Below are positions 40,553 to 53,124 of a DNA stretch of 64,000 nt, one piece after another. Origin of the DNA: Sulfurospirillaceae bacterium (GTDB lineage: Bacteria; Campylobacterota; Campylobacteria; Campylobacterales; Sulfurospirillaceae); assembly GCA_033723415.1 (NCBI GenBank), contig JAWVXD010000001.1, positions 128,001-192,000 on the forward strand, written 5' to 3'. The position numbers were made by a program, and so were the translations under genes. The notes under the pieces are model-generated. The model had not been told where the DNA came from and ran no database searches. It was given only the letters and a program-made list of their open reading frames with translations. Each line of letters begins with the position of its first letter. Positions within the stretch are counted from its first letter, which is position 1.

Positions 40553-40944
40553 AGATAGCTAGCTTAGATATAGGGTTAAAAAGAATAGGAATTGCTATAA
40601 GTTTTGATAAAAAAATTGTTATTCCTCAAGATCCAATTTTTAGAAAAAATCGCATTCAAGCATCAAGGGATGTAGATAAGTTTCTGAACGATTGGGATAT
40701 AGATATACTAGTTGTAGGAGTCCCAAAATCTGGAAGCAGTGCAGAAGAAATGGAAAGAAGAATAAAGCATTTTTTATCTCTTCTTGAGTTTAAAAACAAG
40801 ATATACTTTCAAGATGAATATGGTACCAGCGTAGAAGCAAAAGAGATGATGAAAGGCATAAGTAAACAAAAAAAAGATGGAAAAATTGATTCGCTTGCTG
40901 CTAAATTAATTTTAGAAAGATGGTTATCTCAAAATAGTATTTGA
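40549..40944 (+). CDS. ruvX: YqgF/RuvX family nuclease
   Basis: SLDIGLKRIGIA, VVGVP, QDEYGTS, IDSLAAKLILE. Confidence 0.93.
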   Translation: MKIASLDIGLKRIGIAISFDKKIVIPQDPIFRKNRIQASRDVDKFLNDWDIDILVVGVPKSGSSAEEMERRIKHFLSLLEFKNKIYFQDEYGTSVEAKEMMKGISKQKKDGKIDSLAAKLILERWLSQNSI

Positions 40945-41703
40945 CTATTACTATCGTTTTTTTTCAAAATTAGCAAAAATATACCTATGTAACAGATAAA
41001 CAATTTGACTATTGATACCTTGTGAAATTTGCATCTTTACTACATTACTCAAACAGATATAGGAATTTTATAACTCGACAAATGAAATATAATCAGATAA
41101 ATTAATAATGTTGATGATGAATTATCTATAGAAAATATTTATTTTTCCCTTTATCTTTTGATAAAAATATTATCAAATATATGTTCTTTTTATATATAAA
41201 TTTTGGATAAAATGATCTTAATAAATTACTGTTTTTGTTCTTGAAAAATACATTATCTAGAATTAAAATTCTCCAAATTTAAGCATGTTTTATATATAAA
41301 TACTTAGAAAATATTATATAAAAAAATATAAAAAATAGTGTTTTATATATAGGCTATTTTCTCCAAATATATCATTGATAAAAATTTTAATCTTTTATTT
41401 GTATTAAATTTAAAATTATTGAGTCATTCTTCTTGTATTAGTTACCTATAGTAACATCAAATTTATTTGTTTATATTTTATTTAAAAAAATGCTTTCTGG
41501 TGATAGGTTATAAATCTGCTGCCTTTTAATGCCTATGAAATGAACGTTAACGCCCAAAATAGCCTAAACTATATCAATCAAAAATAGAATAAAAAATAGA
41601 CAATCATATAAAAATAGTTAATATCTATTTAAGATTAATTATCTACCATAGGAGGGATGTGTGTAAACACAATTTCAAAAATCTTAACACTTAAGGAGAG
41701 AGA

Positions 41704-42726
41704 ATGAAGTCAATTACTGGAGGATTAAAAATCTTTATTTTTAGTTGTTTGTTATTTTTAACTGCTACAGCTATGCAGGCAGATACTTGGAAGTACGCTT
41801 TGGGAGAAGGACTTAATGATCCTCAAGGATTGTATGCAACAAAATTCAAAGAGGTTATTGAGCAAAACTCTAATCATAAAATAAAGATCTATCCTGTCGG
41901 TACTCTTGGAGAAGAGAGCGATATAATGGAGCAAGTACAAGCAGGTTTGTTACAATTTGTTGGCCAATCGACAGGATATATGGGTGGAACAATACCGGAA
42001 ATGGATGTATTCTTTGTTCCTTACTTGATGCCTGACAATCCAAAACATCTCGGTAAGTTTTTCAAAGATTCTGTAGCTATTAACAAAATGTTCCCAAAAA
42101 TTTTTAGAAAACACAACCTTGAACTCTTGGGTATGTTCCCAGAAGGTGAACAAGCGGTTACAACCATGAAGGAGTTTCATTCACCTGCGGATCTTAAAGG
42201 AAAGAAAATAAGAGTTATGCCAGGTTCTCCTTTGCTAGTCGATACTTATAAAGCTTTTGGGGCTTCTCCTGTTCCTATGAGTTGGGGAGATTTGATTGGT
42301 TCTTTGAAAACTCACATGGTTGATGGACAAGAGAATCCGACTATTTGGATTGCTGCTTATGGACTAGATAAATTGACAAAGGTTTTGACATATATGGGAC
42401 ACAATCAATTTACAGCAACAGCCGTGGCAAATGAGAAGTTTTTCAATAGTTTAAGTGCAAAAGACAAAAAGCTTGTAAAACATGCTTCAGCCGTTGCATT
42501 AAATTATATACTAAAAGAAGCACAAGATTTGGATGCTTTAGGTTTGGGTAGAATTATACGCTCTAATCCAACTTACAAAATCGTAACTTTGACAAAAAAA
42601 GAAAGAGCTGTTTTCAAGAAAAGAGCTTCAAAAGTTGAAGACGCTTTTATAAAAGAAGCCGGTAAAAGCGGAGCTGCTATACTTAAACAAATGAAAATTG
42701 ACCTAAAAAATGCTGAGACAAAATAA
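41704..42726 (+). CDS. teaA: Ectoine/hydroxyectoine TRAP transporter substrate-binding protein (TeaA/UehA-like DctP)
   Basis: Signal peptide; DIMEQVQAGLLQFV, AINKMFPK, PEGE, KIRVM, DGQENP..W resemble Halomonas TeaA as recalled; ectoine catabolic neighbours. Confidence 0.85.
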   Translation: MKSITGGLKIFIFSCLLFLTATAMQADTWKYALGEGLNDPQGLYATKFKEVIEQNSNHKIKIYPVGTLGEESDIMEQVQAGLLQFVGQSTGYMGGTIPEMDVFFVPYLMPDNPKHLGKFFKDSVAINKMFPKIFRKHNLELLGMFPEGEQAVTTMKEFHSPADLKGKKIRVMPGSPLLVDTYKAFGASPVPMSWGDLIGSLKTHMVDGQENPTIWIAAYGLDKLTKVLTYMGHNQFTATAVANEKFFNSLSAKDKKLVKHASAVALNYILKEAQDLDALGLGRIIRSNPTYKIVTLTKKERAVFKKRASKVEDAFIKEAGKSGAAILKQMKIDLKNAETK

Positions 42727-42732
42727 TCTCAT

Positions 42733-42761
42733 TCACGATAGCCAGATATTGGCTATCGTGA
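42733..42761 (+). terminator. 12-bp hairpin after the binding-protein gene (mRNA stabiliser or attenuator)
   Basis: TCACGATAGCCA-GATAT-TGGCTATCGTGA, no U-tract. Confidence 0.6.
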
Positions 42762-42777
42762 GATAAAAAGGAACTTT

Positions 42778-43356
42778 ATGGATAAAAACTCTAATAGGGC
42801 TAGTATGCATTTTTTTAGTATGCTTGATTTTATAGATTTGCAAATCAGTAGACTCGAGGGATTTATTCTGGCTATAGGTATTATACTGATGGCTGTAAAT
42901 ACTGTTGCAGGAGTTGTTAGCAGATATGTATTTAATGATGCTTTAATATTTACAGATGAGCTAAATAGACTTTTTATAGTTATGGTTACTTTTGCAGGTA
43001 TTAGTTATGCCGCAAGACTAGGAAGACATATTAGGATGTCAGCATTTTATGATGTCCTTCCACAAATTTTTAAAAAAATCTTAATGATATTGATGTGTAT
43101 TTTAACTGCCTATGTTATGTTTAGTTTGTCTTATTTCTCGATCTTATATATCTTAGATATACATCATACGGGTCGAATTTTGCCTTCTTTGGGAATACCA
43201 GCTTATATAATTTATTTGTGGGTACCTATAGGATTTTTTGTTACAGGCATACAATATGCCTTGACTGTGATAAAAAATTTCAGATACAAAGAAGTATATC
43301 TGTCTACTGATGTGTTAGACGGATATTGTGATATAGATCCAACTAGTGTGATATAA
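42778..43356 (+). CDS. teaB: TRAP transporter small permease (TeaB-like DctQ)
   Basis: 4 TM; DELNR, TFAGISYAARLGRHIRMSAFYD, IYLWVPIGF, EVYLST. Confidence 0.85.
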   Translation: MDKNSNRASMHFFSMLDFIDLQISRLEGFILAIGIILMAVNTVAGVVSRYVFNDALIFTDELNRLFIVMVTFAGISYAARLGRHIRMSAFYDVLPQIFKKILMILMCILTAYVMFSLSYFSILYILDIHHTGRILPSLGIPAYIIYLWVPIGFFVTGIQYALTVIKNFRYKEVYLSTDVLDGYCDIDPTSVI

Positions 43357-43362
43357 GGAATA

Positions 43363-44649
43363 ATGATGGGTATAACAATTTTTACTTTGATGGTCGCTTT
43401 ATTGTTACTTGGTTTTCCTATGATGGTTTCTTTATTGGCAGGCTCAATGGTAGGTTTTTATGAGTTGTTTGGCGATTTTCATAGAATGCAATTTATGATA
43501 CAGCAAATGATGGGTGGAATACGACCTGCATCACTTATCGCAGTGCCTATGTTTATATTGGCGGCAGATATCATGACCAGAGGTCATTCAGCAGAGAGAC
43601 TTATAGATTTGGTCATGTCATTTGTCGGACATATAAAGGGTGGTTTAGCAGTAACAACTTCAGCTGCATGTGCGGTATTCGGTGCCGTGTCCGGTTCTAC
43701 ACAAGCAACTGTTGTCGCCGTAGGTTCTCCACTAAGACCGAAATTACAAGAAGGTGGATATAAAGATTCATTTATCTTGGCATTGATCATAAATTCAAGC
43801 GATATTGCATTTTTAATTCCTCCTAGTATCGGTATGATTATTTATGGAGTCGTTTCTAAAACCTCTATACCAGAGCTTTTTATATCTGGAATTGGACCTG
43901 GACTTCTAATTCTCTTAATGTTCTCTGTATACAGTATTGTTTATGCTCGCATAAATAATATTCCGACTCAACCTAGAAGTAGTTGGAAGGACAGAGCACT
44001 TGCATTTTATAAGGCTTTGCTACCACTTGGATTTCCAGTTATTATTATCGGTGGGATTTTTACCGGTATATTTAGTCCAACTGAAGCTGCCGCGATAAGC
44101 GTTGTTTATGCGATTATCTTAGAAATGTTCATATTTAGGACCATGAGCTTAAAACACTTTTATGAAACTGCAAAATCAACAGGTTTGGTAACGGCGATAG
44201 TTTTTATACTTGTTGCTGCAGGTTCCTCTTTTGCCTGGGTTTTATCTTTTGCTCAGATTCCTCAAGCTGTTTTATCTAGCATCGGAATTCAAGATATGAC
44301 ACCGCTTGGTGTACTTGGAGTGATAAACGTAGCCTTTTTTGTAGGTTGTATGTTTGTTGATCCAATAGTGCTTATCTTGATATTGGTACCGATTTTTGCT
44401 CCTGTAGTGAAATCTGCAGGATTAGACCCTGTTTTAGTTGGTACGGTGATAACATTACAAGCTGCTATAGGTTCTGCAACACCTCCTTTCGGTTGTGATA
44501 TATTTACTGCTATTGCTGTTTTTAAAAGACCTTATTTTGAAGTTATCAAAGGTATCCCTCCGTTTACCTTTATGCTTTTGTGTGTTGCTGCACTGGTGAC
44601 ATTTTTCCCTGGAATTGCATTATTCTTGAGAGATGTAGCTTTTAGTTAG
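43363..44649 (+). CDS. teaC: TRAP transporter large permease (TeaC-like DctM)
   Basis: LIAVPMFILAADIM, FGAVSGSTQATVVAVG, IPPSIGMI, SPTEAA, ATPPFGCDIF. Confidence 0.88.
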   Translation: MMGITIFTLMVALLLLGFPMMVSLLAGSMVGFYELFGDFHRMQFMIQQMMGGIRPASLIAVPMFILAADIMTRGHSAERLIDLVMSFVGHIKGGLAVTTSAACAVFGAVSGSTQATVVAVGSPLRPKLQEGGYKDSFILALIINSSDIAFLIPPSIGMIIYGVVSKTSIPELFISGIGPGLLILLMFSVYSIVYARINNIPTQPRSSWKDRALAFYKALLPLGFPVIIIGGIFTGIFSPTEAAAISVVYAIILEMFIFRTMSLKHFYETAKSTGLVTAIVFILVAAGSSFAWVLSFAQIPQAVLSSIGIQDMTPLGVLGVINVAFFVGCMFVDPIVLILILVPIFAPVVKSAGLDPVLVGTVITLQAAIGSATPPFGCDIFTAIAVFKRPYFEVIKGIPPFTFMLLCVAALVTFFPGIALFLRDVAFS

Positions 44650-44657
44650 ATATGTTG

Positions 44658-44817
44658 TAGTCCATAGTGGATTATTTTATCTTGAAGGAGTTTGATAAAG
44701 ACAAAAATTCAAAAATGTAGATTTTTGTTTTAGACATGCGTTAAAGTCATCAACGACTGTATTGTGTCGTCTTTTCAAACTCCTTTTTTATATGCGGACT
44801 GCTAAGTCCGGCATGAC
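44658..44817 (+). other. Highly structured intergenic element (multi-stem RNA or MITE-like inverted repeat)
   Basis: AAGGAGTTTGA(T)AAAGAC 44685-44702 pairs with GTCTTTTCAAACTCCTT 44769-44785, encloses two sub-hairpins and is followed by a T-run; flanking hairpins at 44658-44674 and 44795-44810. Confidence 0.55.
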
Positions 44818-44893
44818 GGTCTTGACTTTATAGATTGTTGAATTTTTAACAAATTATAAATTATTTTAAAACAAATTTTACCAAGGAGATAAA

Positions 44894-46051
44894 ATGATTC
44901 CAAGATATATGTCTGCCATGTGTCTCATCGGACATGGCGGTGTAGAAAAATTGCTCTATCGAGAGGACGTTCGTATTCGAGAACTAAATCCTCACGAGCT
45001 ACTAGTAAAAGTTACGGCGACTGCAAAAAACAACACTGACAGAAAGGTGAGAGAAGGATTGTACCCGACAAAAGACAATAATGACGTTGCATCGTTTGAT
45101 ATGGGCGGAACATCTTCTTTGCAGTTTCCGAGAATTCAAGGAGCAGACGTAGTCGGTAATATAGTTGCAGTAGGCTCTGATATAGATTCAAGAAAAATAG
45201 GTGAAAGAGGTCTTTTAGATTTTAATATATATGCAACCGACAGTGAAGATATCAATTTGGCTCCGGATTATTACGGACATGGTGCAGATGGAGGTTATGC
45301 CGAGTACATAATAGTTCCTAGTAGTCAGTTTTATTTAATTAAAAATCCAGAACTTGCAGATGCAGAGTTGGCCTCTATGGGTATGTGCTCATATCAGACT
45401 GCATTACATATGCTTAATATCGCCGGTGTAAAATCAGGAGAAAAAGTTTTAGTAACAGGTGCAAGCGGCGGAGTCGGTACTGCACTGATACAGCTATGTA
45501 AAATCATCGGAGCAATTCCTTATGCTTTAAGTTCTTTAGATAAAGAAGAGATGCTTTTATCTTTGGGAGCTCAAAAAGTAATCGATAGATCAAAAATCGA
45601 GGATGTCGCGCAAAATATACTTAAAGCAACAAATGGGGAAAATATAGATGCCGTTATGGATTTACTGGGAGGTGAGTATACTAGTAGGCTTATAGATACT
45701 ATGATCGTAGACATGAATAAAAGAGATACTTACCCTAGATTGTCTATTGCCGGTGCAAGCGGCGGTAACGTGAGTGAGATCTTATGGACCAAGATATATC
45801 TTTATCAAGTGCAGATATTCGGCGTCTCCCACGGAACTAGGGTAGAGGCTAAGCAGTTGATAAGATGGATACAAGACAAAAAGTTGATACCTGTTTTACA
45901 CGGCACTTTTAAATTATCAGATTTACATAAAGCTGAAGAGTATTTTGTTTCAAGAGATAACAATTTCTTGGGAAAAATCGTGATTGTGCCAGATTCTGAA
46001 TGGAATAGGCATGGCGAAAAATTTAAAGTGAGAAAATTCTATGAAAACTAA
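44894..46051 (+). CDS. Medium-chain dehydrogenase/reductase, zinc-independent (QOR/enoyl-reductase-like)
   Basis: GroES-like N-domain with AKNNTD and IQGAD where Zn-ADHs have C-x-T-D and GHE; VTGASGGVG; GKIVI. Confidence 0.88.
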   Translation: MIPRYMSAMCLIGHGGVEKLLYREDVRIRELNPHELLVKVTATAKNNTDRKVREGLYPTKDNNDVASFDMGGTSSLQFPRIQGADVVGNIVAVGSDIDSRKIGERGLLDFNIYATDSEDINLAPDYYGHGADGGYAEYIIVPSSQFYLIKNPELADAELASMGMCSYQTALHMLNIAGVKSGEKVLVTGASGGVGTALIQLCKIIGAIPYALSSLDKEEMLLSLGAQKVIDRSKIEDVAQNILKATNGENIDAVMDLLGGEYTSRLIDTMIVDMNKRDTYPRLSIAGASGGNVSEILWTKIYLYQVQIFGVSHGTRVEAKQLIRWIQDKKLIPVLHGTFKLSDLHKAEEYFVSRDNNFLGKIVIVPDSEWNRHGEKFKVRKFYEN

Positions 46052-47069
46052 GCATGTTATACAAATCATCGATACGCATGCCGGAGGCGATGTCAGCAGA
46101 ATCGTAATAGGAGGAATAAAGGATATACCAGCAGACACAGTCAGAGGGAAGATGGAATATTTGTCTCAATACGCGGATGGTTTAAGGGTAGCTTTGCTAA
46201 GTGAACCTTATGGCATACCCGAAATGTCTGTAGATTTGATTGTCCCTCCTAGCAATAAAGAGGCTAAGGCAGGTTATATCATTATGGAGGAGATGGGTTA
46301 TCCGATATATTCCGGTTCAAATACGATTTGTACGGCTACTGCCTTATTGGAGAGTGGTCTAGTGGAAAAAAAGGAAGGATTTAACTATTTTAAATTAGAA
46401 TCTCCCGCTAGTTTGGTAGAGATAGAAGCTTTTGTAAAAGATGGAATTGTAGAGTCTGTTACATGTGAAGGATTACCTAGCTATATAGCCGAATACAAAA
46501 ATAAAATATATGTTCCAAATTATGGAGAAGTAACATATTCAATCGCTTATAGCGGCGGATATTATGCTCTTGTTGATGCAAAAGAACTTGGTTTTAATCT
46601 TGTCAAAGATGAAGAAAATGCACTTCGTCAGTGTGCGTATGCAATCGTAGAGGAAATAAATAAAACTAAAATATACAATCATTATGATTTAGGATTTGTC
46701 GGGAAGTTGCCGTTTTTGCATTTTATGGGAGAAGTTGAGAAAATAATCGAAGGAGAATACAGATCAAGGTCTACTACATACGTTCATCCTGGAGTTATAT
46801 GCCGAAGCACTACCGGCACAGGTACTTCGGCAAGATTGGCTTTTTTGAACTATGAGGGGAAAATCAAAGAAGGAGACAAGCTAGAAACTGTTTCTTTGAG
46901 AAATACTAAGTTTGTCGGAGAGTTTTGTTTTGTTGAAAAGAAATTTGGTTTTGATATCGTTAAAAATAAAATATTCGGTAGAAGCTATATCTTAGCAAAA
47001 TCAGATATTTTTATTGATTTAACTGATCCTATTCTAAATTGTGACACGATCTCAATGATTACTTATTAA
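46041..47069 (+). CDS. Proline racemase superfamily protein, Ser/Thr catalytic pair (dehydratase type)
   Basis: IDTHAGGDVSRIV, SEPYG, YSGSNTICTAT (Ser at Cys1), CRSTTGTGTSAR (Thr at Cys2); overlaps upstream MDR gene. Confidence 0.9.
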   Translation: MKTKHVIQIIDTHAGGDVSRIVIGGIKDIPADTVRGKMEYLSQYADGLRVALLSEPYGIPEMSVDLIVPPSNKEAKAGYIIMEEMGYPIYSGSNTICTATALLESGLVEKKEGFNYFKLESPASLVEIEAFVKDGIVESVTCEGLPSYIAEYKNKIYVPNYGEVTYSIAYSGGYYALVDAKELGFNLVKDEENALRQCAYAIVEEINKTKIYNHYDLGFVGKLPFLHFMGEVEKIIEGEYRSRSTTYVHPGVICRSTTGTGTSARLAFLNYEGKIKEGDKLETVSLRNTKFVGEFCFVEKKFGFDIVKNKIFGRSYILAKSDIFIDLTDPILNCDTISMITY

Positions 47070-47081
47070 GCAAAAAAACTA

Positions 47082-47112
47082 TTGACAAAGTCTATGAAAA
47101 AACGATAGACTT
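47082..47112 (+). promoter_or_regulatory. Sigma70-type promoter with overlapping inverted-repeat operator
   Basis: TTGACA 47082-47087, 18 nt, TAGACT 47106-47111; AAGTCTAT-N9-ATAGACTT 47088-47112. Confidence 0.6.
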
Positions 47113-47140
47113 ATTTATCTTTTTCGAAAGGAGCTGTACC

Positions 47141-47299
47141 ATGTATTTCAAAGTATCTCTTGTTAATTTTGTTTACGTCAGTATAGCAGTTTTGAAAAAT
47201 TTTATATATCCTTCAATCAGTTATAAAATTATAAAGCCGATTGATAGAATCTTCGCCCAATACAAAGCTTTAGCCATCAAGCCCAGACAAACTCACTAA
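47141..47299 (+). CDS. Small unannotated ORF, 52 aa (MYFKVSLVNFVYVSIAVLKNFIYPSISYKIIKPIDRIFAQYKALAIKPRQTH)
   Basis: AAAGGAG SD 7 nt before ATG, directly downstream of the promoter; below the ORF-track size cutoff. Confidence 0.5.
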   Translation: MYFKVSLVNFVYVSIAVLKNFIYPSISYKIIKPIDRIFAQYKALAIKPRQTH

Positions 47300-47420
47300 A
47301 TTTAAATATTCTTCACAAACAATCTAAATTGTTCATATGCTATGCATATTATGAATTATTTAAGCTAGTGAGTACTTAAACAAATATTTTAAAACACTAT
47401 ATATTTAAGTTAAGGAGAAA

Positions 47421-48662
47421 ATGATGGCAAACGAGATGGAATTATTTGAAAAGTATGAATCAGAAATAAGAGCTTACTGTAGAGCAGTGCCTACGGTTTT
47501 TAAATCATCGCAAAACGCAATAATGATAGATGAAAACAATAAAGAGTATGTGGATTTTTTTGCTGGGGCAGGAGTATTAAATTTCGGCCACAACAATCCA
47601 AAGATGAAAACTGCAATCATAGATTTTATAAATAGAAATGGCGTAGCACATAGTTTAGATATGTTTACCGATGTCAAAAGAGATTTTATAAAAACTTTTG
47701 TTGATACAATTCTTAAACCGAGAAACATGGAGTATAAACTACAATTTACCGGTCCTACAGGCACAAATGCCGTAGAAGCTGCACTTAAATTGGCGAGAAG
47801 AACAACAGGCAGAGTCAATGTAGTGGCTTTCAACAGAGGATTTCACGGTATGACTTTGGGTGCGCTTGCATGTACCGCGAATCAAGCTTTTAGGGGAGCA
47901 TCCGGAGTTCCTTTAAATAATGTTATTAGAGATACGTTTAATGACATGCAAGCATTGAGCAACCTGAGGCAAAAATTTGAAGACAGGGGTTCTGGACTTA
48001 TGCCGCCGGCTGCTTTTTTAGTTGAATCAGTTCAAGCCGAGGGTGGTGTGAGAGTAGGGCAGAAAGAATGGCTTCAAGGTGTTCAAAAACTTGCAAAAGA
48101 CTTAGGATCACTTTTTATAATAGATGATATTCAAGCAGGAAGCGGAAGATGTGGAACCTACTTTAGTTTTGAAGATCTGGATTTAGATCCAGATATTATA
48201 GTTCTTGCAAAAGGATTGGGTGGATTTGGTACGCCGATAGGTATGCTTTTGAATAAACCCAATATTGATTCCAATTGGAAACCGGGTGAACATACCGGCA
48301 CATTCAGAGGACAAGGTATCTCTTTTGTTGCAGGTAAAATAGGAGTTGAGTACTTTAAGAACAATGATCTTTTAGATGGAGTGAAAGAAAAAGGGAGCTA
48401 TATTAGGAGTAGATTAGATGCACTTCAAGAAATACATAAAGATTTAAAAATAAGACAAAAAGGCATGATGCTGGCACTAGAATTTTCAAATGCACAAATC
48501 GCCAAAGAGGTTGCAACGAAATGTTTTGAAAGAGGACTTATTATAGGTGCTTGCAGTACCGGTGAAATTCTTAAGTTTATTCCTCCATTGACTATAGAGA
48601 AAGATGTTCTTCAAAAAGGCATGGATACTTTTGTTGATGTCTGTTTAGAAGTTCTGGGTTAA
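47421..48662 (+). CDS. ectB: Diaminobutyrate--2-oxoglutarate transaminase (EctB-type class III aminotransferase)
   Basis: ESEIRAYCR, DFFAGAGVLNFGHN, KLQFTGPTGTNAVEAALKLAR, IIDDIQAG, LAK (PLP Lys), PGEHTGTFRG. Confidence 0.85.
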   Translation: MMANEMELFEKYESEIRAYCRAVPTVFKSSQNAIMIDENNKEYVDFFAGAGVLNFGHNNPKMKTAIIDFINRNGVAHSLDMFTDVKRDFIKTFVDTILKPRNMEYKLQFTGPTGTNAVEAALKLARRTTGRVNVVAFNRGFHGMTLGALACTANQAFRGASGVPLNNVIRDTFNDMQALSNLRQKFEDRGSGLMPPAAFLVESVQAEGGVRVGQKEWLQGVQKLAKDLGSLFIIDDIQAGSGRCGTYFSFEDLDLDPDIIVLAKGLGGFGTPIGMLLNKPNIDSNWKPGEHTGTFRGQGISFVAGKIGVEYFKNNDLLDGVKEKGSYIRSRLDALQEIHKDLKIRQKGMMLALEFSNAQIAKEVATKCFERGLIIGACSTGEILKFIPPLTIEKDVLQKGMDTFVDVCLEVLG

Positions 48663-48672
48663 GGGGGTTGGT

Positions 48673-50064
48673 ATGTCATATAGTAAAACATCATTTGTAT
48701 CTATAAATCCAACTACAGAAGAAATCGTTTGTGAAGTACCAATGGATACTAAGCAGGAGGTTCAGGCAAAACTAGAGCTTTCTTTAAAAACTTATAACGA
48801 ATATTGGAAAGACACCACATTTGAGCAAAGAGCTGATATTTTAAATAAAGTCGCAGCAGAGATGAGAGCCAATTTAGATGAATATGCAATTCCTATGACT
48901 TTGGAGATGGGAAAGCCTATAAAAGAGGCAAGAGCTGAGGTAGAAAAATCAGCGTGGTGTGCAGAGCATTATGCAAAATATGCGAAAAGCTATTTAAAAC
49001 AAGACAATATAGAGTCGGATGCAACTTTAAGTTACGTCCAATATCTTCCTCTGGGTCCGACTCTAGGGATATTGCCTTGGAATGCACCTTTTTGGCTTGC
49101 GTTTAGATATATTGCTCCTGCACTCATGGCAGGCAATACATGTGTCATGAAACATGACTCTCACACGCCAAAATGCGCAGAAGTTATCGTTCAAGCATTT
49201 ACCAAAGCAGGCGCCCATGAAGGGATATTACAAAATTTGACTATCGCCAGTTCTGATGTAGAATCAGTCATGAGACATCCGATAATCACTGCTATATCAT
49301 TTACAGGTTCTGTCGGTACAGGGTCAAAAATAGGTGCGATTGCCGGTTCTGAGATAAAACCTTGTGTTCTAGAACTTGGCGGTTCAGATCCTGCTATAGT
49401 GCTAAGTGATGCGGATTTGGAATCGGCTGCTGATATTATATCCTTGTCTCGTATGATAAATGCAGGACAGTCATGTATAGCAGCGAAAAGAATCATCGTT
49501 GAGGAACCAATCTATGATGAATTTATTGAAATGCTTAAAGTAAGATTTGAAAGATTAAAAATGGGTGATCCGATGGATGAATCCACTGATATCGGTCCTA
49601 TTGCTAGAAAAGAGTTAGTCCATGAGATGCATCAACAAGTAAAAAGATCCATAGATGCCGGCGCAAAGTTGGTGCTTGGAGGCAAAGAGTACACGGGCAA
49701 AGGATATTTTTATCCGGCTACACTCTTAGTTGATGTCAATCCTGGTATGGTGGTTAGTTGTCAAGAGACTTTTGGGCCTATAGGTGTGGTTATCAAAGCA
49801 AAAAATGCCGAAGAAGCTTTAAAGATTGCCAACGATACGGAGTTTGGGCTTGGAGCTTCAGTTTGGACTGATGTTAAAAGAGGCGAAGAGATAGCAAGAA
49901 AAATAGTATCTGGACAAGTTTCGGTTAACGGTATAGTGAAAACAGATCCTAGATTACCTAGTGGCGGTGTTAAAAAATCGGGCTTAGGTAGAGAATTGGG
50001 TCCTCATGGAATCAAAATGTTCGTAAATGCTCAACAAATTTGGATCGGTCCTAAAAAGGGCTAG
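48673..50064 (+). CDS. NAD(P)-dependent semialdehyde dehydrogenase (SSADH family; DoeC-like role)
   Basis: ILPWNAP, SFTGS, LELGGSD, NAGQSCIA, ETFGP, GGVKKSGLGRE. Confidence 0.9.
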   Translation: MSYSKTSFVSINPTTEEIVCEVPMDTKQEVQAKLELSLKTYNEYWKDTTFEQRADILNKVAAEMRANLDEYAIPMTLEMGKPIKEARAEVEKSAWCAEHYAKYAKSYLKQDNIESDATLSYVQYLPLGPTLGILPWNAPFWLAFRYIAPALMAGNTCVMKHDSHTPKCAEVIVQAFTKAGAHEGILQNLTIASSDVESVMRHPIITAISFTGSVGTGSKIGAIAGSEIKPCVLELGGSDPAIVLSDADLESAADIISLSRMINAGQSCIAAKRIIVEEPIYDEFIEMLKVRFERLKMGDPMDESTDIGPIARKELVHEMHQQVKRSIDAGAKLVLGGKEYTGKGYFYPATLLVDVNPGMVVSCQETFGPIGVVIKAKNAEEALKIANDTEFGLGASVWTDVKRGEEIARKIVSGQVSVNGIVKTDPRLPSGGVKKSGLGRELGPHGIKMFVNAQQIWIGPKKG

Positions 50065-50087
50065 TTTTTTTAAGGAGAAAACAAAAG

Positions 50088-51266
50088 ATGAAACTAGCTT
50101 TTTCAAAGAAAGAGTATATATCAAGAGTTAAAAGAGTTCAGCGCTTAATGAAAAAAAGGGATATTGACATACTTGTTTCCACAGATCCAGGAAATATGAA
50201 CTGGTTGACCGGCTATGACGGCTGGTCTTTTTATGTTCATCAGGGTGTTATTGTCTCTGTTAATGATGATGAACCTATTTGGTTTGGAAGAGACATGGAC
50301 AGAAGCGCTGCACTTTTAAAGTGTTATATGCAAGAAGACAATATGATTGCATATCCGGAAGAATATGTTCAGAATGTTGACAAGCATCCTATGGAATGGA
50401 TCGCAAAAAATATTTTTTACAAAAAAGGATGGCAAAAAGTTGTAATAGCCACTGAGATGGATACATATTATTACACTGCCGCTGCCCATCTAACCCTTGT
50501 TTCAAATCTTTGGAAAGCCAGATTTGTAGATAGTCAGAATTTAGTAAATTGGGCCAGAGGCATAAAATCTGATAAAGAGATTGAGTATATGAAGATCGCC
50601 GGAAAAATAACATCTAAAATCCATCAAAGGATATTAGATGTTGCCAGAGTCGGTATTCCAAAACATTTTGTTGTCTCCCAGATATATGAAACAGCTATTG
50701 CAGGAGTAGATGGTCTAAGTGGAGATTATCCGTCAATCGTGCCTTTACTACCTTCAGGGAAAGAGGCATCAGCATCTCATATTACATGGGATGAGAGATC
50801 TTTTAAAGCTCATGAAGGAACATTTTTTGAGATGTCAGGATGCTACAAAAGATACCATGCTCCAATGGCTAGAACGATTTTTATGGGTAAACCTGACCAA
50901 AAATTTGTAAATGCAGAAAAAGCAGTGTTAGAGGCTATAGATGCAGGGCTAGAACAGGCAAAACCCGGAAATAGGACGTGTGATATCGCCAATGCTGTGG
51001 ATAAAATCATGACAAAATATGGTATAGATAGACACGGGGCTAGATGCGGGTATCCAATAGGCGTTAGTTATCCTCCTGATTGGGGAGAGAGAACTTGCAG
51101 TTTAAGATCTTCTGATTATACTGTTTTAAAACCAGGTATGACATTCCACTTTATGCCTGGAATTTGGCAAGATGATTGGGGTATTGAGATAACAGAGAGT
51201 ATTTTGATAACAAAAGACGGAGTTGAAACTCTATGTGATTTCCCCAGAAAACTTTTTGTAAAATAA
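50088..51266 (+). CDS. doeA: Ectoine hydrolase DoeA/EutD (M24 fold)
   Basis: NMNWLTGYDGWSFYVHQ, HPME, LVNWAR..KS, SHITW, RYHAPMART, GYPIGVSYPPDWGERT.SLR, TFHFMPG. Confidence 0.93.
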   Translation: MKLAFSKKEYISRVKRVQRLMKKRDIDILVSTDPGNMNWLTGYDGWSFYVHQGVIVSVNDDEPIWFGRDMDRSAALLKCYMQEDNMIAYPEEYVQNVDKHPMEWIAKNIFYKKGWQKVVIATEMDTYYYTAAAHLTLVSNLWKARFVDSQNLVNWARGIKSDKEIEYMKIAGKITSKIHQRILDVARVGIPKHFVVSQIYETAIAGVDGLSGDYPSIVPLLPSGKEASASHITWDERSFKAHEGTFFEMSGCYKRYHAPMARTIFMGKPDQKFVNAEKAVLEAIDAGLEQAKPGNRTCDIANAVDKIMTKYGIDRHGARCGYPIGVSYPPDWGERTCSLRSSDYTVLKPGMTFHFMPGIWQDDWGIEITESILITKDGVETLCDFPRKLFVK

Positions 51267-51275
51267 GGAGTGTAT

Positions 51276-52430
51276 ATGCCAATCAAATGGTCAGACGCAG
51301 TTAAAATTGCAACAGATTTCAGGCACGAACTTCATGCCGAACCGGAGTTGACATGGCAAGAAGTAGAAACTTCAAAAAAAATCAGAGCAATGCTTGATCA
51401 CTATAATATAAAGTGGAAAAGTTTTGCAAAGACAGGGACCGTAGGATATCTAGGGAAAAATATCAAAGGCAAACACATAGCACTTAGAGCAGATATTGAT
51501 GCCTTAGACGTACAAGAGACTACAGGTCTAAAATATGCTTCCGTGAAAAAAAATCATATGCATGCGTGTGGACATGATGGGCATACCGCCACTCTTATGG
51601 CAGTAGCTATCTTTTTGAGTGAAAATGAAACTAAACTCTCAAATCAAGTATCTTTAGTTTTTCAACCTGCAGAAGAAGGCGGGCATGGTGCAAAAAAGAT
51701 GATTGAAGAGGGATGTTTAGATGGAGTAGACTTTATATATGGCTGGCACAATTGGCCGGCCATTAAATTTGGACAGGCACTTTGTCCAGATGGAGCAGTT
51801 ATGGCAGGCAATGGGACTTTCACCATATCTTTAGAAGGAGAAGGCGGTCATTCCTCCCAACCTGAAATGTGTAAAGATCCTGTTTTGGCAGGTTCAGCCA
51901 TAGTTGTAGCACTACAACAGATTGTAAGTAGGCAAATAGGTCCACAAGATGCTGCAGTGGTTTCAGTTACATCATTTGAAGCCCCGAGTGGACTGACCGC
52001 TATTCCGTCTTTTGCTAAATTAGCCGGAAGTATCAGAGTCACAAGTTCTGAGATGAAAGAAGTTATAGCCGACTCTATTAAGAATATAGCAAAAAATACG
52101 GCAGCAGCATATGGAGTAAATGCAATAGTAGAATTTAAAAATAGATATAACGCTACTATAAACCATAAAGAAGAGGCAGAAAATTACAGAGAGATTTTAA
52201 AAAATAATTTGGGAGAGAATTGGCAAAGTCAGGTCAAGACTCCCATTATGGCATCAGAAGATTTTAGCTACTATTTAGAAAAGATTCCAGGAGCCTTTGC
52301 CCTAATAGGAAGTGATGATGGAGAAGAAAAGCACTGTAAACCTTGCCACAATGCTTCTTACGATTTCAATGATAAACTCATTGATGTTGCAGGGAAAATT
52401 TTAATGGAGTGCGCCGGGTATAGATTTTAA
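51276..52430 (+). CDS. M20 family amidohydrolase, probable N-acetyl-diaminobutyrate deacetylase (DoeB2-type)
   Basis: RHELHAEPEL, LRADIDAL, MHACGHDGH, FQPAEEGG, WHNWP, ASEDF, CHN..YDFND; directly after doeA. Confidence 0.82.
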   Translation: MPIKWSDAVKIATDFRHELHAEPELTWQEVETSKKIRAMLDHYNIKWKSFAKTGTVGYLGKNIKGKHIALRADIDALDVQETTGLKYASVKKNHMHACGHDGHTATLMAVAIFLSENETKLSNQVSLVFQPAEEGGHGAKKMIEEGCLDGVDFIYGWHNWPAIKFGQALCPDGAVMAGNGTFTISLEGEGGHSSQPEMCKDPVLAGSAIVVALQQIVSRQIGPQDAAVVSVTSFEAPSGLTAIPSFAKLAGSIRVTSSEMKEVIADSIKNIAKNTAAAYGVNAIVEFKNRYNATINHKEEAENYREILKNNLGENWQSQVKTPIMASEDFSYYLEKIPGAFALIGSDDGEEKHCKPCHNASYDFNDKLIDVAGKILMECAGYRF

Positions 52431-52433
52431 AAT

Positions 52434-52775
52434 TCAAATAAAAACTTCTATATATTGGTTTTCGTCAAATCCGACTATTATTTGATCTTTGTATTCTATA
52501 ACCGGTCTTTTGATTAGCATATTTTCTTTAGCTAGCCATTTTATTTTATCTTCATCACCTAAACTAAGTTCTTTAAGCCCCAATTTCCTATAGGTTGTCC
52601 CTTTTTTATTAAAGAGTTTATCTACTGTAGTCTTTTTTAACCAAGACTGTATTTTATCTATGTCTACAGACTCTTTCTTGAAATCTACAAATTCATAATC
52701 TATGTTGTGTTCTTTAAAAAAGTTTAGGGCTTTTTTTACGCTTCCGCAAGTTTTTATTCCATATACTATATTCAT
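52434..52775 (-). CDS. ArsC/Spx/YffB family protein
   Basis: YGIKTCGSVKKA, LFNKKGTTYRKL, LIKRPVI, VGFDE. Confidence 0.9.
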   Translation of the reverse strand: MNIVYGIKTCGSVKKALNFFKEHNIDYEFVDFKKESVDIDKIQSWLKKTTVDKLFNKKGTTYRKLGLKELSLGDEDKIKWLAKENMLIKRPVIEYKDQIIVGFDENQYIEVFI

Positions 52776-52842
52776 TAGTTAATCCTGTTTTAAATTTCAA
52801 TAGAGTATAGTATAATAAATTTTTATTTAAAAAGGAGTTATT

Positions 52843-53124
52843 GTGCAAGTAAATGTAAGCTCTATGAATGCATATAACGACTGGCTTTCAAATAATTCTA
52901 ATAATATTGCAAATGTAAATACTCAAGATTATAAAGCAACTAACACAAATATAACAAATATAAAGGGAGATGTTAATGCAGTCTCAACAAAGAGTTCTAG
53001 TGGAACTGATTTAACAAAAGAATTAACAGATCAGATATCTATAACAACAGGCTTTAAAGCTGATCTAAAAGCAGTTAAGACTCAAGATCAAATGTTGGGC
53101 TCTATTTTAAATCTTTTAGCTTAA
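52843..53124 (+). CDS. Small protein made of flagellar rod N- and C-terminal motifs only
   Basis: SNNIANVNT.DYKA N-motif; DLTKELTDQI...KAVKTQDQMLGSILNL C-motif; AAGGAG SD, TATAAT at 52811. Confidence 0.8.
   Translation: MQVNVSSMNAYNDWLSNNSNNIANVNTQDYKATNTNITNIKGDVNAVSTKSSSGTDLTKELTDQISITTGFKADLKAVKTQDQMLGSILNLLA

Follow-up and report, generated by a model that had tools for sequence, protein, structure and literature searches.

A proline-racemase-superfamily enzyme and a zinc-free reductase as candidates for hydroxyl removal from 5-hydroxyectoine in a Sulfurospirillaceae ectoine locus

Results

Gene content of the locus

We analysed a 64,000-nucleotide stretch of DNA (the window; positions 128,001 to 192,000 of contig JAWVXD010000001.1, assembly GCA_033723415.1) from a Sulfurospirillaceae bacterium, and all coordinates below are window positions. 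Our subject is a pair of genes within an ectoine locus, encoding a zinc-free medium-chain dehydrogenase/reductase (MDR) and a proline-racemase-superfamily (PRS) enzyme; both lie on the + strand, with the MDR gene upstream, and their open reading frames (ORFs) overlap by 11 nt. A sequence-only reading had described two overlapping genes between a TeaABC-type transporter and a doeA block, and proposed that their products dehydrate 5-hydroxyectoine and then reduce it to ectoine in place of EutABC. The arrangement is as it described, with the following features (DABA, diaminobutyrate; SSADH, succinate-semialdehyde dehydrogenase; ALDH, aldehyde dehydrogenase):

41704..42726, + strand: TRAP solute-binding protein, UehA/TeaA-like, probably for ectoine/hydroxyectoine uptake (PF03480; 46-48% identity to DctP of eut clusters L130, L131 and L137)
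42778..43356, + strand: TRAP small permease (44-54% to DctQ in eut clusters; no NCBIfam match)
43363..44649, + strand: TRAP large permease (TIGR00786 over cut-off; 70% to DctM in alphaproteobacterial eut clusters)
44650..44893, no strand: 244-nt gap with no gene, where five related Campylobacterota loci have usp/teaD; single copy in the genome
44894..46051, + strand: zinc-free MDR of the NNTD/RIQGxD subfamily ('K-type'), 385 aa, a proposed NADPH-dependent dehydroectoine reductase (PF08240/PF00107)
46041..47069, + strand: PRS enzyme with Ser91, Asn94, Cys254 and Thr258, 342 aa, a proposed 5-hydroxyectoine dehydratase (PF05544)
47421..48662, + strand: EctB-like DABA transaminase, second copy, with a probable catabolic DoeD role (PRK09264 over cut-off; 46% to the genome's biosynthetic EctB)
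48673..50064, + strand: SSADH-type ALDH, with a probable DoeC role (57% to the ALDH beside DoeA_2 in locus L156)
50088..51266, + strand: ectoine hydrolase DoeA/EutD (TIGR02993 573 bits, just below the cut-off of 613; 54% to Paracoccus DoeA)
51270..52430, + strand: N(2)-acetyl-DABA deacetylase DoeB2 (M20; NF038260 608 bits, over the cut-off of 550)

With a hydrolase, deacetylase, transaminase, ALDH and TRAP importer all at one locus, this is an ectoine catabolic (doe/eut) cluster. In the block at 47421-52430 the second EctB-like transaminase, the SSADH-type ALDH and DoeB2 replace DoeD, DoeC and DoeB, and the transaminase and ALDH types recur beside DoeA_2 in the high-GC locus L156. No usp/teaD gene was found in the gap or elsewhere in the genome; apparent inverted repeats are visible in the gap (44650-44893) by eye. 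Across 40900-53100 there was no match to an Rfam family. Promoter and terminator counts were those of shuffled sequence.

The source genome (G000, 100% complete) carries an ectABCD-ask cluster as well (locus L091, 6121-10773, contig C3; EctD 313 bits against a cut-off of 336.5) and so both makes and degrades ectoines. Homologues of eutA, eutB and eutC (TIGR02990, TIGR02991, TIGR02992) were found neither in the locus nor in the whole genome, and tblastn of the genome with EutA and EutC gave no match. The absence first noted for the locus thus extends to the complete genome, and a eutABC set elsewhere that might have done the work instead is not there. Three candidates were rejected: the best EutB-type match is IlvA, the gene of the ornithine cyclodeaminase (OCD) family considered as a hidden eutC is a true ornithine cyclodeaminase adjoining an arginase-like ORF, and the Asp/Glu racemase is not EutA. 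Given that PRS occurs in only 4 of 301 genomes of the phylum Campylobacterota and that doeA is absent from 4 of 4 family relatives tested, the ectoine locus looks like an acquired block.

The PRS protein resembles a dehydratase with an altered ring-nitrogen site

The PRS protein scores 255 bits against PF05544, above the gathering score, and its model (predicted local distance difference test, pLDDT, 90) has the superfamily fold, with template modelling (TM) scores of 0.87-0.90 to 6R76, 4K7G and 6HJG. Of these, 4K7G is a Ser/Thr-type trans-3-hydroxyproline dehydratase (t3HypD; TM 0.90, 31% identity). YSGSN at residues 90-94 and CRSTTGTG at 254-261 bear out the Ser/Thr pair read from the sequence; Ser91 and Thr258 are present in 120 of 120 near homologues, with no Cys/Cys or Ser/Cys two-base pair. 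The protein falls below the NCBIfam cut-offs for proline racemase and 4-hydroxyproline epimerase (202/556, 152/376 and 111/450 bits), and its best match is T3LHypDht at 229 bits against a cut-off of 550 (NF047722; NF045511, 133/540).

According to passages of PMC4113996, in the t3HypD B9K4G4 Ser90 is the base, Asn93 its positioner and Thr256 non-catalytic. The window protein fits this single-base pattern, with SGSN (a Ser with its positioning Asn) opposite Thr258. Zhao et al., in the same passages, state that the prolyl-nitrogen Asp is conserved (Asp232 in Zhao 2014 numbering), and it is replaced by Cys in 240 of 240 proteins of the clade. In a tree of 127 rows, with no characterised enzyme among them, 67 rows split from the rest at 100% support in the approximate likelihood ratio test SH-aLRT; almost every one of these 67 whose motif was read is Asp-type. 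Together the retained Ser, Asn and Thr, the exchange of the ring-nitrogen Asp for Cys and the separate branch argue for a predicted dehydratase acting on a ring other than proline.

PRS genes adjoining eutBC in genomes G061 and G117 fall in the Asp-type branch, outside this clade. A distant Cys-for-Asp PRS (35%) at L106 (5747-9620) follows an aminotransferase gene and a 2-oxoadipate dioxygenase/decarboxylase gene, which suggests a lysine/pipecolate-type substrate for that branch.

The MDR protein belongs to a zinc-free subfamily

The motifs AKNNTD (residues 44-49) and IQGAD (81-85) uphold the zinc-free assignment: NNTD and GAD stand where we take the Cys and His motifs of zinc-dependent alcohol dehydrogenases to be, and the protein has three Cys only and no CxxC zinc lobe. 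One nuance is Cys165, invariant in 27 aligned MDRs, which presumably occupies the place of the second catalytic-zinc Cys. The first structural match of the model (pLDDT 83) is 4J6F (TM 0.85, 42% identity), followed by matches that are mostly quinone and enoyl reductases and include a few alcohol dehydrogenases. No NCBIfam model is over its cut-off, the best being PIG3-type (101/297 bits) and crotonyl-CoA reductase (99/379). Ser-Ser-x-x-Lys217 follows the second Rossmann strand and is presumably an NADPH-preference motif; Lys217 and Arg232 are invariant. The MDR tree, whose root was not used as the outgroups were saturated, has two sister subclades (support 100/100 and 80/65), each with both eut-cluster and PRS-paired members.

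The source genome also has a third-type NNTD MDR (36% to the window MDR) in an unrelated operon (L090, 6702-15087, contig C9). Its neighbours, labelled by sequence inspection, are an old-yellow-enzyme-like ORF, a 2-hydroxyacid dehydrogenase, an aminotransferase, a RidA-like ORF, an AraC regulator and an ATP-binding cassette (ABC) transporter.

The pair is a conserved cassette

We compared the best 80 of 415 confirmed GTDB loci and the best 80 of 207 metagenome loci, the latter from the sister subclade and its relatives. The MDR gene lies directly upstream of PRS in 80 of 80 GTDB loci (three truncated or frameshifted) and in 69 of 80 metagenome loci, where seven are too short upstream and four are without an MDR. 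The MDR-PRS pair is a conserved cassette, not chance. A first GTDB scan with a single protein as query gave no match, nor did a viral scan with the MDR.

Among 131 Halomonadaceae genomes, 58 carry PRS at 60% identity or more (two interrupted), and an MDR of at least 65% identity occurs in those 58 plus two others. PRS is likewise found in 73 of 111 Marinobacteraceae genomes (56 at 61% or more, 17 at 48-52%), and the named relatives of the sister PRS subclade are actinobacteria and halophilic gammaproteobacteria. In Halomonadaceae and Marinobacteraceae the cassette is mostly stand-alone with unrelated neighbours; no shared pathway gene other than ectoine genes was found among the neighbours scanned.

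Variants were also observed. An AI-2E-family transporter gene lies directly upstream of PRS or the pair in L115, L117, L143, L165 and L179; several Marinobacteraceae have a sister-subclade PRS without an adjacent MDR (L114, L115, L117-L119); and genome G448 has a K-type MDR (L142) and a sister-subclade PRS (L143) on different contigs. Frameshifted or interrupted copies of either gene (L121-L123, L025, L067, L163, G017, G131) reflect decay or sequencing error.

The pair and its MDR subfamily recur beside ectoine genes

Six Campylobacterota loci have the pair within the catabolic operon. Three gene orders occur among them, five of the loci sharing uehABC-usp-MDR-PRS-doeB2, and all six probably represent one acquisition. 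In alphaproteobacterial clusters eutABC occupies the slot after usp that MDR-PRS fills in Campylobacterota. Elsewhere, in the metagenome locus L156 (70% G+C), about 3.4 kb separates the pair from an EctB-like/DoeA_2/ALDH module with DoeA_2 over cut-off, and in L161 and L163 ectD (over cut-off) is divergently adjacent to it. An ectD gene 9-10 kb from the pair in L111-L113, with unrelated genes between, was not counted as linkage.

The MDR subfamily is also found inside canonical eutABCDE clusters, after atf, in Paracoccus yeei (60% to the window MDR), Rhizobium lentis and Sinorhizobium meliloti, and PDB 4J6F is identical to the S. meliloti eut-cluster gene. Passages of PMC5924519 describe an ectoine-inducible oxidoreductase in the S. 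meliloti unit and list adh among genes of undefined role. The idea that the pair stands in place of EutABC therefore applies only at the Campylobacterota loci, in the slot after uehABC-usp, since the MDR subfamily itself resides in eutABCDE clusters. Strong MDR matches (E<1e-80) occur in 20 of 401 Pseudomonadota genomes, eight of them PRS carriers without eutA and 12 with eutA over cut-off about 9-10 kb away (two of these 12 loci were opened). In the plasmid tallies eutA is listed for Leisingera, Shinella and Burkholderia, with no match to the window MDR at E<=1e-50. We rejected the MDR as an obligatory EutA partner, as the eutA clusters L129, L135 and L137 have no adjacent MDR; in L130 and L131 the flank was too short to judge.

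The cassette might instead handle another cyclic beta-hydroxy imino acid or osmolyte, its ectoine links reflecting shared habitat and co-selection. Such a role would suit the many stand-alone loci, the PRS carriers that have no ectD, the third-type NNTD MDR of the source genome in its unrelated operon, and the Cys-for-Asp relatives elsewhere, for example at a glycine-betaine-type ABC locus in S. americanum and the lysine-type locus L106. We nevertheless think it rather unlikely, because the cassette is placed repeatedly by ectoine-specific genes in separate lineages and no other pathway gene is common to the neighbours scanned.

Co-occurrence with eutA, eutB, doeA and ectD

In Halomonadaceae, eutB is present in 35 of 58 PRS carriers and 35 of 73 non-carriers (odds ratio 1.65, p 0.16), where eutB-type calls were made at E<=1e-100, none over cut-off, with eutC adjoining in all five loci opened. 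Mutual exclusion of PRS and eutB was therefore rejected (35/23/35/38), and among ectD-positive genomes alone there is a weak negative trend (odds ratio 0.36, p 0.046, kin not being independent). What survives of the suggestion that the pair excludes eutABC is eutA: the PRS clade occurs in 0 of 14 genomes with eutA over cut-off, in a search scoring only four candidates per genome, and this split follows taxonomy, with which it is confounded. An early search for eutA in G001-G005 gave 0 of 5, then with no positive control; the same model later matched in 44 of 401 genomes. Published passages state that eutA is absent from Halomonadaceae (bioRxiv 10.64898/2026.03.05.709796), that H. elongata has no eutA and can dispense with eutBC on ectoine (PMC3187862), and that many catabolic clusters are without eutA (PMC5924519).

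No TIGR02993-type doeA was found at E<=1e-60, a threshold that could miss the DoeA_2 type, in any of 111 Marinobacteraceae, though 73 carry PRS; DoeA_2 was far below cut-off in the two genomes checked. Given these doeA-less carriers and the 35 of 58 Halomonadaceae carriers with eutB, the pair neither needs DoeA nor displaces EutBC. ectD is present in 56 of 58 Halomonadaceae PRS carriers versus 42 of 73 non-carriers, and in 44 of 73 Marinobacteraceae carriers versus 10 of 38 non-carriers.

These counts bear on a reading in which the pair acts after ring opening, on hydroxy-N-acetyl-DABA (hydroxy-ADABA) or hydroxy-DABA, or in which PRS is an epimerase replacing EutA while the MDR reduces a downstream imine, enamide or aldehyde. 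Gene order lends it something, as doeB2 directly follows PRS in five Campylobacterota loci and the rhizobial and Paracoccus MDR comes after ssd-atf. So does chemistry: hydroxy-ADABA and hydroxy-DABA are real intermediates according to passages of PMC8739950, EutA shares with maleate isomerase a Cys/Cys pair, Ser-containing members of the PRS are capable of epimerisation (passages of PMC4113996), and Cys254 could serve as a second acid/base. Against this, the Marinobacteraceae carriers have no evident source of ring-opened substrate by the doeA and DoeA_2 searches above, and the second catalytic position holds a Thr, as is the pattern in dehydratases (same passages of PMC4113996). We regard this reading as unlikely.

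Published expression of the Halomonas elongata orthologues

The PRS orthologue of H. elongata DSM 2581 is CBV42771.1 (HELO_2887), with 65% identity and the same motifs. The oxidoreductase that precedes it, HELO_2886, is presumed to be the MDR by position and annotation. In part of the supplements of PMC9006882, transcripts per million (TPM) at 0.17, 1 and 2 M NaCl are 95, 48 and 19 for HELO_2886, 101, 48 and 24 for HELO_2887, 200, 89 and 38 for doeA, and 18, 16 and 127 for ectD. The pair thus falls with salinity like doeA, more steeply than eutB and eutC and opposite to ectD; in the DESeq table for low versus high salt its value is +1.74 (padj 6e-102). This low-salt rise fits removal of hydroxyectoine at low salt.

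The same data speak to two further alternatives. PRS could be a trans-3-hydroxyproline dehydratase, or repair a side product of EctD: it has the Ser/Thr pair, T3LHypDht as best NCBIfam match and a TM of 0.90 to 4K7G, ectD co-occurs strongly, and H. elongata EctD makes trans-3-hydroxyproline (Hara 2019, cited in passages of PMC6890836). Yet the match is far short of its cut-off, the prolyl-nitrogen Asp is lost, and the pair's expression drops as ectD climbs. Moreover, no gene for OCD or dihydrodipicolinate synthase (DHDPS) adjoins the pair in the 160 loci, save for an OCD-like gene about 6 kb off in L033, L042 and L050 only (MLD2, with no reference, was not searched for). This role would also leave the uptake operon and the MDR of PRS-less eut clusters unexplained, and we judge it improbable.

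The second alternative is the reverse direction or a redox switch, in which the MDR oxidises ectoine or a C5 alcohol and PRS hydrates or epimerises, giving oxygen-independent hydroxyectoine or a C5 epimer. The reactions would be formally reversible, and Marinobacteraceae carriers without ectD (29 of 73; ectC in all five tested) would have a use for such a route. We give it very little credence: the pair is induced at low salt, opposite to ectD, it is embedded in catabolic operons, and the closest zinc-free folds are NADPH quinone/enoyl reductases.

Discussion

A proposed dehydration and reduction of 5-hydroxyectoine

On balance we lean towards a reading in which PRS removes water from intact trans-5-hydroxyectoine, leaving a product that the MDR reduces to ectoine. 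This extends the original dehydrate-then-reduce proposal, which is strengthened by context, by phylogeny, by the residues of the active site and by published expression data, and is still a proposal. The cassette would be self-contained in stripping the hydroxyl from the intact ring. In a first, cofactor-free step, Ser91, placed by Asn94, would take the C4 (alpha) proton and the C5 hydroxyl would be eliminated, as in Ser/Thr trans-3-hydroxyproline dehydratases, to give 2-methyl-1,6-dihydropyrimidine-4-carboxylate. In a second, the zinc-free MDR would reduce the dihydropyrimidine double bond to yield ectoine, probably with NADPH; a conjugated C=C acceptor suits zinc-free MDRs. In the source genome ectoine would then pass to DoeA, DoeB2, the transaminase and the ALDH, as judged from their families. 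In Halomonas and Marinobacter the cassette would undo EctD as salinity drops, with or without later breakdown.

Natural 5-hydroxyectoine is trans according to passages of PMC6890836, so its alpha proton and hydroxyl should be placed as in trans-3-hydroxyproline. The dihydropyrimidine was once proposed as the product of EutB (passages of PMC5924519). Given that pyridoxal phosphate (PLP) enzymes need a primary amine (passages of PMC8739950), which the hydroxyectoine ring does not have, a PLP enzyme would be an awkward catalyst for its formation. The existence of PRS carriers that have no doeA speaks for the intact ring, rather than ring-opened compounds, as the substrate.

Several observations weigh against dehydration of the intact ring. 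Although links to ectoine genes arise in several separate lineages, the enrichment of orthologues near such genes that had been expected is borne out only in part: ectoine catabolic genes lie within 10 kb of the pair in only 2 of 80 GTDB loci, both Campylobacterota, and an ectoine enzyme is near it in only 3 of 80 metagenome loci. The rhizobial MDR sits in the ssd-atf unit, which handles DABA, not the ring, and at least three eutA clusters (L129, L135, L137) have no adjacent MDR. Because eutB co-occurs freely with PRS, the pair's route would be redundant there, and EutD/EutE open hydroxyectoine directly (passages of PMC8739950). Among Marinobacteraceae PRS carriers, 29 of 73 have no ectD, and of five such genomes tested all have ectC and only two a close UehA/TeaA-like protein (43-45%). 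The co-occurrence counts are not independent of kinship. In the H. elongata data the pair shows no significant change in the other two DESeq tables of PMC9006882 consulted, and low-salt induction is common there, with 419 genes up by TPM and 278 by both methods.

One MDR subfamily, two kinds of partner

A bolder extension, which we consider doubtful, is that one MDR subfamily is a dehydroectoine reductase fed by interchangeable cofactor-free partners of two unrelated folds: the PRS clade on one hand, and on the other enzymes of the EutA/arylmalonate-decarboxylase fold (the eutA product in rhizobia and Paracoccus, and that of a single-Cys gene in L102). In genome G012, one of the two Halomonadaceae with MDR but no PRS, this single-Cys gene (L102, 7026-7787) directly follows the MDR gene and so sits in the PRS slot; its second site is Asp, and it has 23% identity to EutA, far below cut-off. 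Though a single case, it also counts towards an ectoine-specific role of the MDR. EutA is not supported as an obvious dehydratase, having a Cys/Cys pair. If this extension were true, the orphan adh (4J6F) would gain a function, EutA would be reinterpreted as attacking the intact ring, and ring-opened hydroxy-DABA would be left to EutB and EutC. Halophiles, even those unable to degrade ectoine, would then interconvert ectoine and hydroxyectoine under the control of salt, with EctD working in one direction and the cassette in the other.

Related gene sets occur elsewhere. L136 (9971-16536) has an EutA-like gene, an M20 amidohydrolase, a TRAP transporter 55% identical to the window DctM and a distant M24 hydrolase, and so looks like a catabolic operon of the ectoine kind that serves another compound. 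An EutA-like gene is likewise paired with an M24 gene in L133, L138, L139 and L141.

Significance

Removal of the hydroxyl from 5-hydroxyectoine is an unsettled step, and passages of PMC8739950 state that the EutABC activities are unknown. The pair names two soluble, easily assayed candidates, together with the orthologues HELO_2886/2887 in H. elongata, an industrial ectoine producer. Members of the PRS superfamily are thought to perform mostly three known reactions (passages of PMC4113996); dehydration of hydroxyectoine, if true, would be a new one, and the orphan structure 4J6F would be assigned. The pair would then also be a deletion target that could raise hydroxyectoine yield or purity in Halomonas. 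We found no literature linking the MDR-PRS pair to ectoines in a search that left out subscription journals, theses, patents and bioRxiv supplements; the parts of the supplements of PMC11142988 and PMC11577897 that were searched hold nothing on a racemase.

Comparison with known systems

The nearest mechanistic parallel is t3HypD with its Pyr2C reductases of the OCD or MLD2 family (passages of PMC4113996). The PRS fold (TM 0.90), catalytic Ser with positioning Asn, and Thr on the opposite face are shared, as would be the chemistry, in which a cyclic amino acid with a trans beta-hydroxyl undergoes syn-dehydration and is then reduced with NAD(P)H. The window PRS differs in its 31% identity, the change of the ring-nitrogen Asp to Cys, its separate tree branch, an MDR as partner, and an ectoine rather than hydroxyproline context.

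EutABC of Ruegeria pomeroyi and S. meliloti (passages of PMC5924519 and PMC8739950) shares with the pair the operon slot after uehABC-usp, which the pair fills in Campylobacterota. The net reaction and the dihydropyrimidine intermediate, both proposals that are unproven for EutABC too, would also be common to them. In contrast, the pair has no homology to EutABC, comprises two genes with neither a PLP enzyme nor an OCD-family enzyme, coexists with eutB in 35 of 58 Halomonadaceae carriers and occurs without doeA. The orphan adh of S. meliloti (4J6F) is of the same NNTD/RIQGxD zinc-free subfamily as the window MDR. It belongs to the sister subclade, which is also found paired with the PRS clade, namely in actinobacteria and in certain Marinobacteraceae, whose MDRs share 71-84% identity with the rhizobial or Tsukamurella protein; 4J6F itself follows ssd-atf beside eutABC with no PRS and has a function left undefined in the literature consulted. 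Methylomicrobium alcaliphilum 20Z (passages of PMC7192451) likewise degrades ectoine without eutABC, enuR or asnC, through doeBDAC with a DoeB2-type deacetylase; those passages describe no transporter or hydroxyectoine-handling genes, and the window adds a TRAP importer and the MDR-PRS cassette. By analogy, the pair would work like t3HypD with its reductase, and like the proposed EutABC route, while being a member of neither.

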